NCBI RefSeq assembly: GCF_050920415.1
Contig: NZ_CP169309.1
From: Escherichia coli
GTDB taxonomy: Bacteria > Pseudomonadota > Gammaproteobacteria > Enterobacterales > Enterobacteriaceae
DNA: 64,000 nt
Direction: 5' to 3' (one strand)
Translations under genes and position numbers: made by a program
In this document: piece by piece, positions 45,471 to 56,366 of the stretch
Numbering within the stretch: the first letter of the stretch is position 1
Layout: the number at the start of each line of letters is the position of its first letter
Notes under the pieces: model-generated
What the model was told of the DNA's origin: nothing
The model's database searches: none
What the model saw: the letters and a program-made list of their open reading frames with translations, nothing else

Positions 45471-45493
45471 TGGGATTTTTGGTCGCACGAGAG
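45471..45493. repeat. Distal att direct repeat of the proL island
   Basis: tgggatttttggtcgcacgagag resembles tgggcgatttggtcggcacgagag at the tRNA 3' end (56281..56304). Confidence 0.55.
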
Positions 45494-45660
45494 TAGTTTA
45501 ATTGAGTGTATAACTAAATGATTTTAAATAATATTCTTTATTCAACTTTTAAATCGTATAACCAAACGTATAACTAAAATAATTTGCTGAAAAAGTGTAC
45601 AATTTCAGCAATAATTGCCCTAGCGACTATCATCCTGCTCCCCGGATTTTTTCCGGTTAA

Positions 45661-45897
45661 ATGTTAATCAGGCTGCTGGGCTTTGCCTGTTCGGTAGGTG
45701 TAATGATTATCGTAATACTTTTCCCCCAATGGGGTAAAAGCATCAACCGTAACGGAAGTCGTTATGGTTGCCTTGATGATCTGCGTGGTCATTATGACCA
45801 TTCAGCCAATGACCTTAATCAGAGCTTTTCGCTAAAAATGACGTTGGCCACTCGTCCGAAAAGCACAAAATCCCATCGATTTTTAATTAACGGTTAA
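45661..45897 (+). CDS. Hypothetical small membrane protein (78 aa)
   Basis: ORF with hydrophobic N-terminal segment (LLGFACSVGVMIIVILF); no convincing RBS. Confidence 0.25.
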   Translation: MLIRLLGFACSVGVMIIVILFPQWGKSINRNGSRYGCLDDLRGHYDHSANDLNQSFSLKMTLATRPKSTKSHRFLING

Positions 45898-46035
45898 ACC
45901 GTCTTTTTGTCACGTCGTGTCACTGGTTGTCACTCTCCGTCACGATCTCCGATAGCCTGGCTGCAAATTAAACTACGAAAATTTCGTAGTTCTGACTTCT
46001 TTCAGATAGTCGGTTGCCTGGTTACACGAAAAAAA

Positions 46036-46407
46036 TTACTTCCTGCGTTTATCCCGCTTTGTATGTCCGTGCTGAATGCCCCGCAGTGGATCTTCTTTTT
46101 TCAGGTCGATCCCCATGTCCGTTAGTGTTTTTGTGGCGGCGGTTCTTATGGCACAAATCAGGTCTCTTTCCGGTTCCCGGGTTATGGTTGCCTTCCGGAT
46201 ACATGCCGTTCGTCGTTCCGTTACATACTGACGCGCTTCATCACTTGCCGCCTGTTTCAGTAACTCACCCCAGCGATTAGCCGCCCGTCGCCATAAACCT
46301 TTCGCTTCCAGTTCTTCCGCTTTGTCATCATGCACCATAAGCATAATCCCATTGATACCTGTTAAATCTGAATGGTTGGTTTCCGTTCTTTTGATAATTT
46401 CCCTCAT
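46036..46407 (-). CDS. Hypothetical protein, possibly PerC-family transcriptional activator-like
   Basis: 123-aa ORF with LEAKGLWRRAANRWGELL motif reminiscent of PerC-type activators; start may be an internal Met. Confidence 0.4.
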   Translation of the reverse strand: MREIIKRTETNHSDLTGINGIMLMVHDDKAEELEAKGLWRRAANRWGELLKQAASDEARQYVTERRTACIRKATITREPERDLICAIRTAATKTLTDMGIDLKKEDPLRGIQHGHTKRDKRRK

Positions 46408-46450
46408 AGCTTATTGTATGACAGTACTGTCCCACAATAAGGAATCACAC

Positions 46451-46750
46451 ATGAGAATGACCAGGCACAAAAAACAGATTCTTGAACTTTACAAACCTGA
46501 GTATCGCGATTGGGTGCGGGTGGAGGCCGGAGATCCGCCTTTTGATGTTCGTGGTGTGACAGTGCTGCTCTATGGTTCCGAATATCAGCGATATCACATA
46601 GAGGCAACCCGACGAACGTTAAACGCTATGGTAAATGATGGGATCCTGTACCGCGTGAAAGTGCGCGAACCCCGCTTTGATGTGCGTATCGGTAGCGATG
46701 GCGCTCACTGTACGGTAATCCGGTACGGGCTGGGTAAATCAGATGATTAA
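46451..46750 (+). CDS. Hypothetical protein (99 aa)
   Basis: Start chosen at ATG 46451 preceded by AAGGA RBS (ORF track extends upstream to 46322); no recognisable domain. Confidence 0.45.
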   Translation: MRMTRHKKQILELYKPEYRDWVRVEAGDPPFDVRGVTVLLYGSEYQRYHIEATRRTLNAMVNDGILYRVKVREPRFDVRIGSDGAHCTVIRYGLGKSDD

Positions 46751-46873
46751 ATCACCAGAATGTAAATTTACATTCTGCCAGCCACCAGCTACAGAACGCA
46801 AATTTGCACTTTGCTGAAATATTAACGGGTTAGGCCAGAGTGCAAATTTGCATTATGCTTTAACTTCAGCAAG

Positions 46874-47155
46874 TTACCGCCGTAACCGCTCCGGCTTCTT
46901 CCACTGGTACGTTATTTTGGCTTTTTCCCTGTACGTCTGTATCCGGCGACGGTAGGCCAGCATTTCAAGAACGCGGATCCGTATGTCGCGCATATCCGCA
47001 TCATTAAGCTGGATACCATCACGGTGCATCACCTCAGCAACCACACGAACATAATTTTCTGCGGTCACGCTGTCCGGCTGCGTGGCCTGTTCGTCAGCCT
47101 GCTGGTTGATTCCGGCGACGCGGCGGATTAATCGCAGTAGTTCGGTTTCTGTCAT
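46874..47155 (-). CDS. Hypothetical protein (93 aa)
   Basis: ORF just downstream of the capsid-gene terminator; no recognisable domain. Confidence 0.4.
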   Translation of the reverse strand: MTETELLRLIRRVAGINQQADEQATQPDSVTAENYVRVVAEVMHRDGIQLNDADMRDIRIRVLEMLAYRRRIQTYREKAKITYQWKKPERLRR

Positions 47156-47315
47156 TGTGCCCCCATCGCGCTGGTTAAGAAAACAAGCTCAGATTTTTTG
47201 TAAAGAATCTGTCACGCTAAAAGATGTCGAACAAAAAACAACCTTCTCCATCATCTTTTTTGCATCGATTACATTAAAAACAACAGGTTACATACATGAT
47301 GATGATGACGATAAA

Positions 47316-47412
47316 ATCACAAAAATGCGCTTTTTTCCGCGCCCGCCCGCCCCGTGTTCATACCCACCCCACCAGGAGGACCCGCAAAAAAGGCGGCTGG
47401 TGCCGCCTTGTT
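47316..47412 (-). repeat. Repeated non-coding element, copy A: terminator hairpin plus GC box
   Basis: Shares a ~38-bp near-identical core (aaaaatgcgc(t/c)tttttccgcgcccgcccgccccgtg) and similar downstream architecture with copy B. Confidence 0.6.
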
Positions 47413-54315: not shown

Positions 54316-54384
54316 TATGTTTTACCTCGTTAATCCGGCGTATTCCGGTGATAAATACGGTAAAACAGGGCAGGGCGGGAAAAA

Positions 54385-54420
54385 CAGTACCCACCGTTTT
54401 AAAACGGTACCCACTGTTTT
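54385..54420. promoter_or_regulatory. Putative operator upstream of alpA
   Basis: acaGTACCCACcgtttt aaaacgGTACCCACtgtttt: motif repeated 20 bp apart around a central palindrome. Confidence 0.4.
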
Positions 54421-54485
54421 TTATCTTATTGATTACGCTTTTCTTTCTGCAAAAAAATAGCGACCGCAAGGGGCCGCTATTGTGA

Positions 54486-54728
54486 TTACCGTTTCCACTT
54501 CTTAGGTCGCCCACCGCATTTAAGGCTGGTGGGCCTCAGCACCTTGTCGATGCTTTCAGCCAGATTTTTCGATGCGCCACGCGAGCGCAAAAAACTGACT
54601 ACCTCGTGTTTTGTGGGGGCAGTTGATTTGTCTTCCGGATCGTACGTTGACCAGAATTCACGATTTGCCATTAAGGCCAACTGAAGGCCTTCACCATAGG
54701 CAGGGGATACCTTTTCATTGAAAAACAC
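54486..54728 (-). CDS. Hypothetical protein (80 aa) between integrase and alpA
   Basis: ORF followed by a hairpin/T-run near 54455..54480. Confidence 0.3.
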   Translation of the reverse strand: MFFNEKVSPAYGEGLQLALMANREFWSTYDPEDKSTAPTKHEVVSFLRSRGASKNLAESIDKVLRPTSLKCGGRPKKWKR

Positions 54729-54829
54729 TCGGATAACTCCTTGAATTTCAAGAGTCGGGTCTCTCTGTATATGGTGATTATACGATGGTTTAGCATGGTT
54801 TGCATCGCTTTTACTGGTTTTTTGTACAG

Positions 54830-56071
54830 TTATACGGCACGGATACCCCTTTTACCACTGGCTATGGTCACTCCGGTTGCTGCGGCCTCTACAAATTCCC
54901 CCCACCAGCGCATAAGCACCACGCGCTTTTCCAGGTAGTTACTTCGGTTATATGCTCGCCTTACCTCGTTCGTGTCCACGTGTGCGAGTGCGGCCTCGAT
55001 TACGTCCGGCTCGAATCCTTCCTCGTTCGCTGCTGTGCTGAATATGGCGCGTAATCCATGAGACACCAGCACGCCAGCGAATCCCATTCGCCGCAATGCT
55101 GCGTTGGCGGTCTGGCTGTTCATAGGCTGCCGTGGGTCTTTCAGGCTAGGGAAAACGTGCTCGCGGTGGTGGCTGATTGGCTTCATGGCCTCCAGTACCG
55201 CCATAGCCTGACTACAAAGCGGGATAACGTGATCACGCCGCATCTTCATGCGTCCGGCGGGGATCGTCCATTGTTGCGCGTCCATGTCGATTTCTTCCCA
55301 GCGTGCTGACGATGCTTCAACCGGACGGGTTACAGTCAGTAGCTGCCATTCAATCAGTAATCTGGTCTGCCGTTCTGTTGCTGATACGGATAAAGCCTGC
55401 ATAAGCTCCGGCAACTGTTCGGGGCGGATTGTTGGCATATGTTTTTTTACAGGGGAGGGGAACGCCTTACGCACATTCATAGCCGGATTGGCATCAATCA
55501 GCCCACTGTTGGCGGCGTAATCCATTACCTCATTAACGCGCTGTAAAACCCGCTTGAGTGTTTCCAGGTTGCCGCGCTCCTTGATGGGTGTAAGCACCTC
55601 AACGAACCTTCGGGCAGTGAGGGTATCTATTGGCGTGTTGCCGATGAACGGGAATACATATTTATCCAGCGAACGCCAGATGTCTTTAATCGTGTTGGGG
55701 GCCAGATTCTGGCTGATTTTCACCTGGTACCATGCCGCCGCCACATTTTCGAACGTGTTCCCTTGTCTTCGGGCCTCTGCCTCTCGTTTTTTCTTCTCAT
55801 GGTCCTGCGGGTCAGTTCCGGCACTGATTAACGTCCTGTACTCGCTACGGCGTTTTCTGGCATCAGCCAGGGAAACATCTTCAAGAGATCCAAAACTCAG
55901 CAATATTCTTTTTTTGTCCGATGGTCGGTAGTAGGAAAATCGCCAGAGTTTTGATCCGGACGGTTTTACCAGGAGAAAAAGCCCACCGCCGTCCTGTAGG
56001 GTGTACTCCTTTTGCGCTGGTCTGGCTGCTTTGATCTGCACTGTGGTTAATGGGGGTGTTTTTCTCGCCAT
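54830..56071 (-). CDS. int: Tyrosine site-specific integrase (P4-type)
   Basis: ORF 54830..56089; start placed at MARKTPPLTT; N-terminal arm-binding-like domain and catalytic HGLR...LAH...Y. Confidence 0.9.
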   Translation of the reverse strand: MARKTPPLTTVQIKAARPAQKEYTLQDGGGLFLLVKPSGSKLWRFSYYRPSDKKRILLSFGSLEDVSLADARKRRSEYRTLISAGTDPQDHEKKKREAEARRQGNTFENVAAAWYQVKISQNLAPNTIKDIWRSLDKYVFPFIGNTPIDTLTARRFVEVLTPIKERGNLETLKRVLQRVNEVMDYAANSGLIDANPAMNVRKAFPSPVKKHMPTIRPEQLPELMQALSVSATERQTRLLIEWQLLTVTRPVEASSARWEEIDMDAQQWTIPAGRMKMRRDHVIPLCSQAMAVLEAMKPISHHREHVFPSLKDPRQPMNSQTANAALRRMGFAGVLVSHGLRAIFSTAANEEGFEPDVIEAALAHVDTNEVRRAYNRSNYLEKRVVLMRWWGEFVEAAATGVTIASGKRGIRAV

Positions 56072-56099
56072 ATGTCTATGATTCCACACGAAAAAACAG

Positions 56100-56160
56100 G
56101 GTTTTAGTTATACGGCTTTAGTTATACGCCAGCCCGTATAACTAAACGTATAACTAAAAA
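56100..56160. repeat. Putative integrase arm-type sites near the tRNA-proximal end
   Basis: Four copies of GTATAACTAAA (two inverted, two direct); the same motif recurs at the distal end (45505..45578). Confidence 0.45.
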
Positions 56161-56289
56161 ATCCGGCTGATAGCTTATAAATCCGGTGATGTTCGGTGAC
56201 TAAAAACCATAAAAAAACCCGCCAATCAAGTGATTAGCGGGTTATCCCTGTCTTATTCGGTGCTTTCCGGTGATATCCGGTGGGCGATT

Positions 56290-56366
56290 TGGTCGGCACG
56301 AGAGGATTTGAACCTCCGACCCCCGACACCCCATGACGGTGCGCTACCAGGCTGCGCTACGTGCCG
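56290..56366 (-). tRNA. proL: tRNA-Pro (anticodon GGG)
   Basis: Reverse complement reads CGGCACGTAGCGCAGCCTGGTAGCGCACCGTCATGGGGTGTCGGGGGTCGGAGGTTCAAATCCTCTCGTGCCGACCA. Confidence 0.9.

Follow-up and report, generated by a model that had tools for sequence, protein, structure and literature searches.

A mosaic Gram-negative phage-inducible chromosomal island with two lambdoid cos sites and a protease-capsid fusion gene at tRNA-Pro(GGG) of Escherichia coli

A 64,000-nucleotide (nt) stretch of an Escherichia coli genome (contig NZ_CP169309.1; the whole stretch is called the window here) contains an island of 10,811 bp between yejO and the tRNA-Pro(GGG) gene (proL), with yejM nearby. Our analysis showed that this island is a mosaic phage-inducible chromosomal island (PICI) of the Gram-negative, Escherichia type, a satellite integrated in the 3' end of tRNA-Pro(GGG). 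Its only structural gene encodes a fusion of prohead protease, scaffold and major capsid protein, and lies between two cos sites that resemble those of Shiga toxin (Stx)-converting lambdoid phages. Taken as a whole, the best explanation is that this PICI is mobilized by a helper phage terminase acting at the island's own cos sites; to PICI identity and helper packaging together we assign a probability of about 0.78.

The boundaries of the island were defined by comparison with an island-free yejO-proL junction (locus L002), which reads ...ttggttttttcttgggaTTTTTGGTCGGCACGAGAGgatttgaacc (cttgggaTTTTTGGTCGGCACGAGAGgatttgaacc). This empty-junction sequence was found in two parts within the window. 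The right attachment site (attR, 56287-56304, ATTTGGTCGGCACGAGAG) holds an undamaged core identical to the tRNA-Pro(GGG) 3' end; this is the sole tRNA detected by ARAGORN in the window (56290-56366, minus strand). The left site (attL, 45478-45493, TTTGGTCG-CACGAGAG), when compared with the empty site and with attR, is a displaced and damaged copy of the same 3' end that has lost one G. An initial annotation of this DNA had placed an integrative island of ~10.8 kb here, bounded by imperfect direct repeats of ~23 bp from the 3' end of proL. The island and its flanking repeats were borne out, but the core common to attL and attR is about 16-18 nt, not 23. The hairpin at 45441-45470 (A-run/CCAACC...GGTTGG/T-run) is chromosomal and abuts the tRNA end in empty sites, as had been foreseen for this bidirectional terminator. 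Arm-type integrase-binding repeats were found at both ends, GTATAAC(T/C)AAA on the left (plus strand, 45508-45518, 45556-45566 and 45568-45578) and GTATAACTAAA on the right (two in minus orientation at 56103-56127, two in plus orientation at 56136-56158). Both sets closely resemble the att repeats of yejM-site PICIs (TTTGTAGTTATACG..., given as TTTGTAGTTATACGTTTG(G/TA)GTTATACGG; PMC6092414, Table S1), of which EcCIATCC25922, EcCIED1a.1, EcCI11128 and EcCI11368.1 are listed in the same paper (Fillol-Salom et al. 2018).

The attL tRNA fragment is damaged in all copies examined, with two bases lost in L001 (1980-1993) and in L008 (1479-1492), whereas the tRNA-Pro at attR is undamaged. Damage to the tRNA fragment at PICI att sites was suggested to act possibly like an addiction module on excision (PMC10111431). 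The neighboring autotransporter gene yejO (42782-45376) is an intact open reading frame (ORF) of 864 codons here; a frameshift or internal stop is annotated in L001, L002 and L014.

The accessory status of the island was assessed with a 12-kb query across it, compared with 5,426 complete E. coli genomes. A match, defined as at least 80% of the query, was obtained in only 2 genomes. One of them is an unrelated bovine strain from Okinawa, whose island is 99.6% identical. In other genomes among the matches listed, yejO, tRNA-Pro and yejM lie within ~1.2 kb, which represents the empty site. With a 99.6% identical copy in an unrelated strain and nearly all genomes free of it, the island is accessory and recently mobile, and the possibility raised in the initial annotation, that the region might be contiguous in all E. 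coli, falls away.

The gene content assigns the island to the PICIs. SatelliteFinder defines a PICI by an integrase, an AlpA-type regulator, a primase-replicase, a capsid morphogenesis gene and a small terminase (TerS), and forbids tails, holins, portal and connectors. A tyrosine integrase gene (Arm-DNA-bind_3 and Phage_integrase domains; 54830-56071, minus strand; NF007246, 552 bits; phrog_1) stands at one end by the family att site, in tRNA-Pro next to yejM. Downstream of it in the same orientation is an AlpA-type regulator/excisionase gene (54109-54315, minus strand; phrog_66/2790), whose product is 97% identical to the homologue in L008, a PICI at the same proL site, and matches PF05930 in relatives. 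The island also encodes its own primase/replicase (D5_N/DUF5906/P4-family C-terminal domain; 50506-52254, minus strand; phrog_864; TIGR01613). Directly 3' of this gene lies a replication origin (50266-50491) with 10 GGTAGA(C/T)A iterons, five per strand, in the same position as the PICI origin described in PMC6092414. The integrase, alpA and iteron-containing replication module reported by the initial annotation were thus all recovered by PHROG and NCBIfam matches and by the iterons. The published PICI EcCIIHE3034 has a primase with 99.7% amino acid (aa) identity to this one, the genes differing at 4 of 1,749 nt, and its DUF4222, orf83 and orf93 show 81-98% identity to those of our island. For int, orf80 and alpA, identity to L008 is 84-99%. 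L003, L007, L008, L011-L013 and L014 all have the order seen here, int - alpA - regulator - icd - DUF4222 - primase - ori - late zone. A variable "late zone" and PICIs with a CLP_protease late gene were described previously (PMC10111431). Here the late zone holds a capsid-morphogenesis gene, which is the protease/capsid fusion and not a lambda E-like capsid.

Strain 08-00022 carries a related island at the same proL site (L014, NZ_CP013662.1 2699700-2710300), with the same integrase, alpA, capsid module, orf93, orf99 and perC. Its replication module is different (a 602-aa primase and other small ORFs), which indicates module swapping between PICIs.

Negative searches complete the assignment. 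Six-frame tblastn of the island gave nothing with helper TerS (neither the Stx-phage nor the mEp460 type), the large terminase subunit (TerL), portal, gpW-like or tail proteins, and nothing with PICI Rpp, lambda-type capsid or decoration proteins. PHROG scans and tblastn found no tail, holin, lysis, portal or connector genes in an element whose length, 10.8 kb, falls within the ~8-12 kb of PICIs. Therefore four of the five core components are present and TerS/Rpp is missing, which we infer to equal "Type B" of SatelliteFinder. A helper-type cos is present as well, in two sites 87-90% identical to phage cos. The initial annotation had rightly seen a phage satellite rather than a prophage, with exactly one structural gene (the fusion; NF045540, phrog_133) and without terminase, portal or tail genes, and the PICI backbone together with the absence of lysis genes agrees with this. 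Its statement that the gene set matched no one family did not hold, since the primase, int/alpA, the yejM-site att repeats and the four core components are those of a Gram-negative PICI. It had also overlooked the two cos sites, on which any account of packaging and helpers hinges.

The cos sites surfaced as a 98-nt direct repeat (47311-47408 and 49850-49947, 79% identical), one copy downstream of the capsid gene and the other downstream of orf83. On the minus strand both copies read as lambdoid cos sites (cosQ-cosN-cosB); the two are direct in orientation and 2.5 kb apart, with the capsid gene between them. Site A (47225-47412, minus strand) contains cosQ GGGTCCT at 47377-47383, cosN GGGCGGGCGGGC at 47341-47352 and a cosB-like region below; over 166 nt it shares 87-88% identity with the cos region of Stx2a-converting phages (Stx2_12E129 and others) and of VT1-Sakai. 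Site B (49770-49950, minus strand) contains cosN GGGCGGGCGGGC at 49880-49891 and, at the cosQ position, AGGTACT (49916-49922); it is 90% identical over 160 nt to phages 1720a-02 and CP-1639. The matching phage segments are found where cos canonically lies, with the lysis genes on one side and terS on the other. The context of the island cosN is ACG|GGGCGGGCGGGC|GCGGAAAAA; the record of phage cdtI begins GGGCGGGAGCGTCGCGGAAAAAGG, and lambda has ACG|GGGCGGCGACCT. The distance between cosQ and cosN is 24 nt in copy A versus 23 nt in lambda. The lambda sequence has the GGGTCCT heptamer at 48,473-48,479, which we take to be the cosQ of Wieczorek & Feiss (2001). A search with the lambda cosN GGGCGGCGACCT, allowing up to 2 mismatches, had returned chance-level matches inside coding sequence only.

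Alignment showed that copies A and B differ chiefly in the cosB-like part, so the island seems to carry two different terminase specificities. The AGGTACT sequence, two changes away from GGGTCCT, occupies the upstream cos in all 3 PICIs of this clade that were examined: this island, RM12581 (L003, ~8380) and O157:H7 NE122 (L016, ~9380). An unchanged GGGTCCT is found in the downstream copy and in the matching phages, and a sister clade keeps it at both of its cos sites. The altered cosQ of copy B could restrict packaging termination to one site. Two cos sites are known from published relatives, too. EcCIIHE3034 has two lambda-type cosN sites flanking rpp, and EcCICFT073 has two functional cos sites and is packaged in phage-sized heads; the dual-cos plan is thus a family trait.

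Four comparisons point to the same helper phages. The closest phage homologues of the fusion protein are in Stx phages, VT1-Sakai, CP-1639, 1720a-02, mEp460 and cdtI (~51% identity over 99% of the length), and several of these phages, including all the Stx-converting ones, are also the best cos matches. In O157:H7 NE122 (L016, NZ_CP038319.1 1786800-1797250), a PICI sits inside terL of a lambdoid prophage, with terL in two annotated pseudogene halves. The late module of this embedded PICI is 95.8% identical over 3.1 kb to that of our island. The surrounding prophage encodes a DUF1441 TerS, a portal and a phage-type fusion capsid, and its cos combines an identical cosN with a copy-A-type cosB. 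The island cos type occurs in 909 of the 5,426 E. coli genomes, and the six island-bearing genomes sampled have 2-4 copies of it, exceeding the island's own two in four cases. Finally, four island units make 43.2 kb, or 91-97% of the 44.5-47.3-kb helper genomes. Together these results suggest that the helpers are likely lambdoid phages with DUF1441-type TerS and heads made from a protease-capsid fusion, many of them Stx-converting.

We propose the following route of mobilization. Upon helper induction or infection, AlpA would switch on excision and the icd-primase operon, and the island would then replicate from its own origin to form concatemers. The helper TerS/TerL would recognize the island cos directly, without an Rpp-type adaptor, because the cos carries helper-like cosB sequence. 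Island DNA would be packaged into particles with helper portal, connectors and tails. About four copies per full-size head, as reported for EcCICFT073, would be the simplest route given the four-unit length. With their differing cosB-type sequences, the two sites would give the island access to helper terminases of two specificities, and because the upstream cosQ is altered, the downstream site would account for most termination events. The capsid fusion would probably enter helper head assembly, either to interfere with it or to alter head size.

The fusion gene (47414-49303, minus strand) encodes 629 aa with a ClpP-like prohead protease, a scaffold and an HK97-fold major capsid part (NF045540, 890 bits). 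The product is about 51-55% identical to the 652-aa homologues of phages (Stx/mEp460/cdtI) across the protease, scaffold and capsid parts. No phage copy more than 52% identical was found among 50,697 phage genome records. A Ser (in AASMAS) and a His (in MMIH) stand in invariant alignment columns, and we take them as the putative ClpP-type catalytic residues. Compared with the phage versions, the protein lacks ~35 linker residues after the protease domain. A second clade of PICI-borne fusions (637-638 aa, 64% identical) has a 29-aa deletion at the same place. In both satellite clades the missing linker (29-35 residues, at residues ~205-212; window 48600-48700) is a Pro/Ala/Thr-rich stretch plus a helix start, and it is present in all 652-aa phage versions examined. 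Because no phage record exceeds 52% identity, both fusion clades look satellite-restricted and old; the cos sites, by contrast, track the helpers closely.

Comparison of the fusion gene with that of RM12581 (L003) revealed 26 synonymous and 7 non-synonymous differences, and the ratio of non-synonymous to synonymous rates (dN/dS) of 0.076 indicates purifying selection. The gene is present at ≥95% identity in 140 of the 5,426 genomes. The gene is thus maintained and presumably active. The compact late module as a whole is 96-99% identical in at least 143 genomes, at several att sites. The start of the fusion gene always overlaps the stop of a small conserved ORF ahead of it, and the gene always has cos sites on both sides. 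In our island this ORF is orf64/75 (49300-49494, minus strand; phrog_4934), 38% identical to orf69, which has the same position in the sister-clade PICI L011. From this ORF through the fusion gene, protein identity to the cspD-clpS PICI of O145:H28 RM12581 is 99-100%. No Pfam match was found for orf75; its AlphaFold2 (AF2) model has two helices (pLDDT 77) and matched nothing in the PDB by Foldseek at E ≤ 0.001, so the idea that it is a ribbon-helix-helix protein is unproven. A profile search against 1.8 billion representatives gave 17 matches, all small or repetitive. The segment from cos copy B to orf75 (49562-49800) has no protein database match; in RM12581 its protein-level identity is 91-93%, with shifted frames.

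These properties of the fusion gene permit another explanation, in which the polyprotein builds the island's own, probably smaller shells on helper portals. Such a half-way capsid-forming satellite would need to steal only the helper's portal, terminase, connectors and tails, and its DNA would enter the shells as a monomer or dimer. Strong purifying selection, the conserved putative catalytic residues, a satellite-only lineage above the 52% level, a linker deletion common to two PICI clades just 64% identical, and the constant company of an overlapping small ORF and surrounding cos sites all argue for it. There are also precedents in the capsid homologues of SaPIbov5 (Ccm) and PmCI172, which have been linked to small heads. 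However, without portal or connector genes in the island, a helper portal would have to fit a shell whose capsid protein is only 54% identical to that of the helper. The length of four units suits a full-size helper head, and in EcCICFT073, a PICI that travels in phage-sized heads, the analogous capsid gene is dispensable. We consider this explanation possible but unlikely. Somewhat more doubtful is its extended form, in which a whole PICI subfamily builds satellite-specific, probably smaller shells on stolen portals and parasitizes two groups of Stx-converting lambdoid phages through its two cos sites.

Several points also weigh against a helper-packaged PICI as such. Direct cos sites 2.5 kb apart could cause abortive cutting. 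The island has neither the single-stranded DNA-binding protein (SSB) gene nor a TerS/Rpp-like gene, both of which are present in most relatives, and it could therefore be a less efficient or partly decayed copy. The lambda-type capsid gene of EcCICFT073 is dispensable for transfer and interference, and the fusion gene may accordingly add little to mobilization. No further cos-like site or helper prophage was found in the window. In addition, cosB and cosQ were recognized from their resemblance to phage cos regions, and the mobilization mechanism rests on homology and context.

The remaining explanations fare much worse. One is that the island is a decayed capsid-forming PICI (cf-PICI) that has become immobile after losing its portal, connector, HNH and terminase genes. 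It could draw on the capsid and protease functions and on the int-alpA-primase left half that cf-PICIs and PICIs have in common. But only capsid and protease are present, fused, and neither PHROG scans nor six-frame searches found remnants of portal, connector, HNH, TerS or TerL genes. The late module is under purifying selection and conserved in its compact form across att sites, and the capsid and cos types match lambdoid helpers instead of the cf-PICI packaging module. We regard this origin as very improbable. Still less credible is a P4-like satellite of P2-type phages: the integrase (35%), AlpA (35%), the C-terminal alpha primase (40%) and the Icd-like gene do resemble P4, but tblastn with all P4 proteins matched only Int, C-terminal alpha and AlpA, with no homologue of sid, delta, psu, epsilon, cI or cII. 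Rfam over the island (E ≤ 1) returned the tRNA only and no C4/isrK (P4 CI-type) RNA, and the cos sites are lambdoid, not the P2/P4 GGCGAGGCGGGGAAAGCAC. A lambdoid prophage remnant left by deletions would explain the lambdoid origin of the capsid gene and cos sites, but it is just as hard to sustain with a PICI backbone, an intact integrase, both att sites in place, no CI/Cro, Q, lysis, terminase or tail genes or remnants, and a capsid only ~54% identical to any phage copy beside cos sites of ~90%.

The remaining genes are arranged as follows. Upstream of the primase gene lies a control region whose function is predicted from its layout (53303-53353), with the palindromes GGTGTACACC (53303-53312) and GGTGTACAC (53338-53346). 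These two GGTGTACAC(C) palindromes separate a small plus-strand regulator gene (53347-53541; phrog_228, E=2.8e-5; weak NF010451) from the divergent icd-primase operon. A promoter scan found a near-consensus promoter, TTGACA-18-TATGTT, on the minus strand at 53353-53324, which agrees with the divergent switch named in the initial annotation. The regulator has weak Arc/TraJ-like (ribbon-helix-helix) matches, and its positional counterparts in L003, L007 and L008 are named YlcI/YnfO. The operon begins with an Icd-like protein of 68 aa, counted from an internal ATG (53001-53207, minus strand; NF033153, 69.8 bits; phrog_6196), where PGAP annotates a longer partial pseudogene. In a 367-aa ORF at 53001-54104 (minus strand), matches were confined to the last ~88 residues, the Icd-like part; the remainder is probably a non-coding remnant of the Bro zone. 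No recognizable gene occupies the ~570 bp from the regulator to alpA (53541-54109), where relatives have a BRO-N gene or pseudogene, and a strong hairpin terminator lies there at 54050-54077 (plus strand). Next in the operon are two small conserved ORFs (52775-53011 and 52567-52782/52827, minus strand; phrog_5146 and phrog_2196, respectively) and the gene for a DUF4222 protein, so named by PGAP (52251-52550, minus strand; phrog_285), which overlaps the primase gene start. Between int and alpA there is a small ORF (54486-54671, minus strand), annotated in L001 and L008 and 98.8% identical in the latter.

After the origin comes orf83 (49966-50217, minus strand; phrog_1231), a small conserved gene 97.5% identical to its EcCIIHE3034 homologue. 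In most related PICIs an SSB gene comes next; our island lacks it. At the other end of the late zone, orf93 (46874-47155, minus strand; phrog_1561) is 76-82% identical in the PICIs L003, L007, L008 and L011. It is the final late-zone gene in every PICI examined and is widespread (863 protein clusters). It has no Pfam match, and its helical AF2 model (pLDDT 68) has no significant fold match. The accessory region beyond it contains orf99 (46451-46750, plus strand; annotated in L001 and L014), with no PHROG, NCBIfam or PADLOC match, and a perC-family transcriptional regulator gene (46036-46338, minus strand; phrog_994/10396; named by PGAP in L001). perC is listed among PICI accessory genes (PMC6092414). 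PADLOC found no defense-system match for ten small ORFs of the island. Between the convergent orf99 and orf93 (46759-46860), three operator-like palindromes occur ~40 nt apart, first GAATGTAAATTTACATTC and then two centered on GCAAATTTGC.

The backbone, the integration site and the general plan of this island have been described before, and its novelty is modest: it is a mosaic that combines two Stx-phage-type cos sites of different cosB, no TerS/Rpp, and a satellite-specific protease-capsid lineage. Once the island is filed as a PICI, the apparent anomaly of its gene set is gone. Its sequence names specific helpers, many of them Stx1/Stx2-converting phages, which is a testable prediction. Our literature searches returned no report of a PICI-helper relationship with Stx phages, and the study of O157 prophage-like elements by Asadulghani (2009) holds nothing specific on PICI-Stx phage helper pairs. 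Were PICIs of this kind to ride on Stx phages or interfere with them, the spread and yield of toxin phages could change. The conserved, satellite-only fusion also sharpens the question of what capsid genes do in Gram-negative PICIs. Should a shell-building subfamily exist, its mechanism would be intermediate between the theft of whole heads by classical PICIs and the theft of tails alone by cf-PICIs, and the subfamily could lower Stx-phage output in Shiga toxin-producing E. coli.

The closest known systems are EcCIIHE3034, EcCICFT073 and the yejM-site PICIs (Fillol-Salom et al. 2018, 2019). Our island is like them in size, gene order and orientation, in its arm repeats, and in having AlpA, an Icd-like protein, DUF4222 and an iteron origin 3' of the primase, which is nearly identical to that of EcCIIHE3034. 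It also has a late-zone capsid gene with orf93, two cos sites and a perC accessory gene as they do, and shares the att site with the yejM-site PICIs. In contrast, it carries a ClpP-protease/scaffold/capsid fusion where they have a lambda E-like capsid, a D-like decoration protein and Rpp, and its cosN is the Stx/mEp460-type GGGCGGGCGGGC rather than the lambda-type GGGCGGCGACCT. The cos sites of EcCIIHE3034 are inverted around rpp, whereas those of our island are direct around the capsid gene.

The sister clade with the 637-aa fusion (L011-L013, at cspD-clpS and other sites) shares the backbone, the shortened linker and the arrangement of cos, small ORF, fusion, cos and, at the end, orf93. Its full order is cos - orf69 - fusion - cos - DUF1441 TerS-like - orf93. 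The TerS homologue after its second cos (65% identical to mEp460 TerS) and its SSB are both absent from our island, and its cos sites are of the cdtI/mEp460 subtype with cosQ intact in both copies. The helper-embedded PICIs (Tommasini, Mageeney & Williams 2023) show the same four-zone plan of integration, Bro, replication and late zones, and the late module, at 95.8% identity, is the only part in common with the embedded PICI. Unlike them, our island lies in a chromosomal tRNA gene, uses another integrase and has a non-coding remnant in place of the Bro gene.

The cf-PICIs (EcCIEDL933; Alqurainy et al. 2023) resemble the island in encoding their own capsid and maturation protease and in the int-alpA-primase half. 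They differ from it in having portal, head-tail connectors, HNH, TerS and TerL; lacking these, our island could not make or fill heads alone. SaPIbov5, a Staphylococcus aureus pathogenicity island of the cos type with Ccm, is similar in combining a helper cos with a diverged homologue of the helper HK97-fold capsid and no terminase gene. Its backbone and host are unrelated, however, and Ccm is a capsid-only protein that was shown to make small heads, whereas the protein of our island keeps its protease and scaffold.

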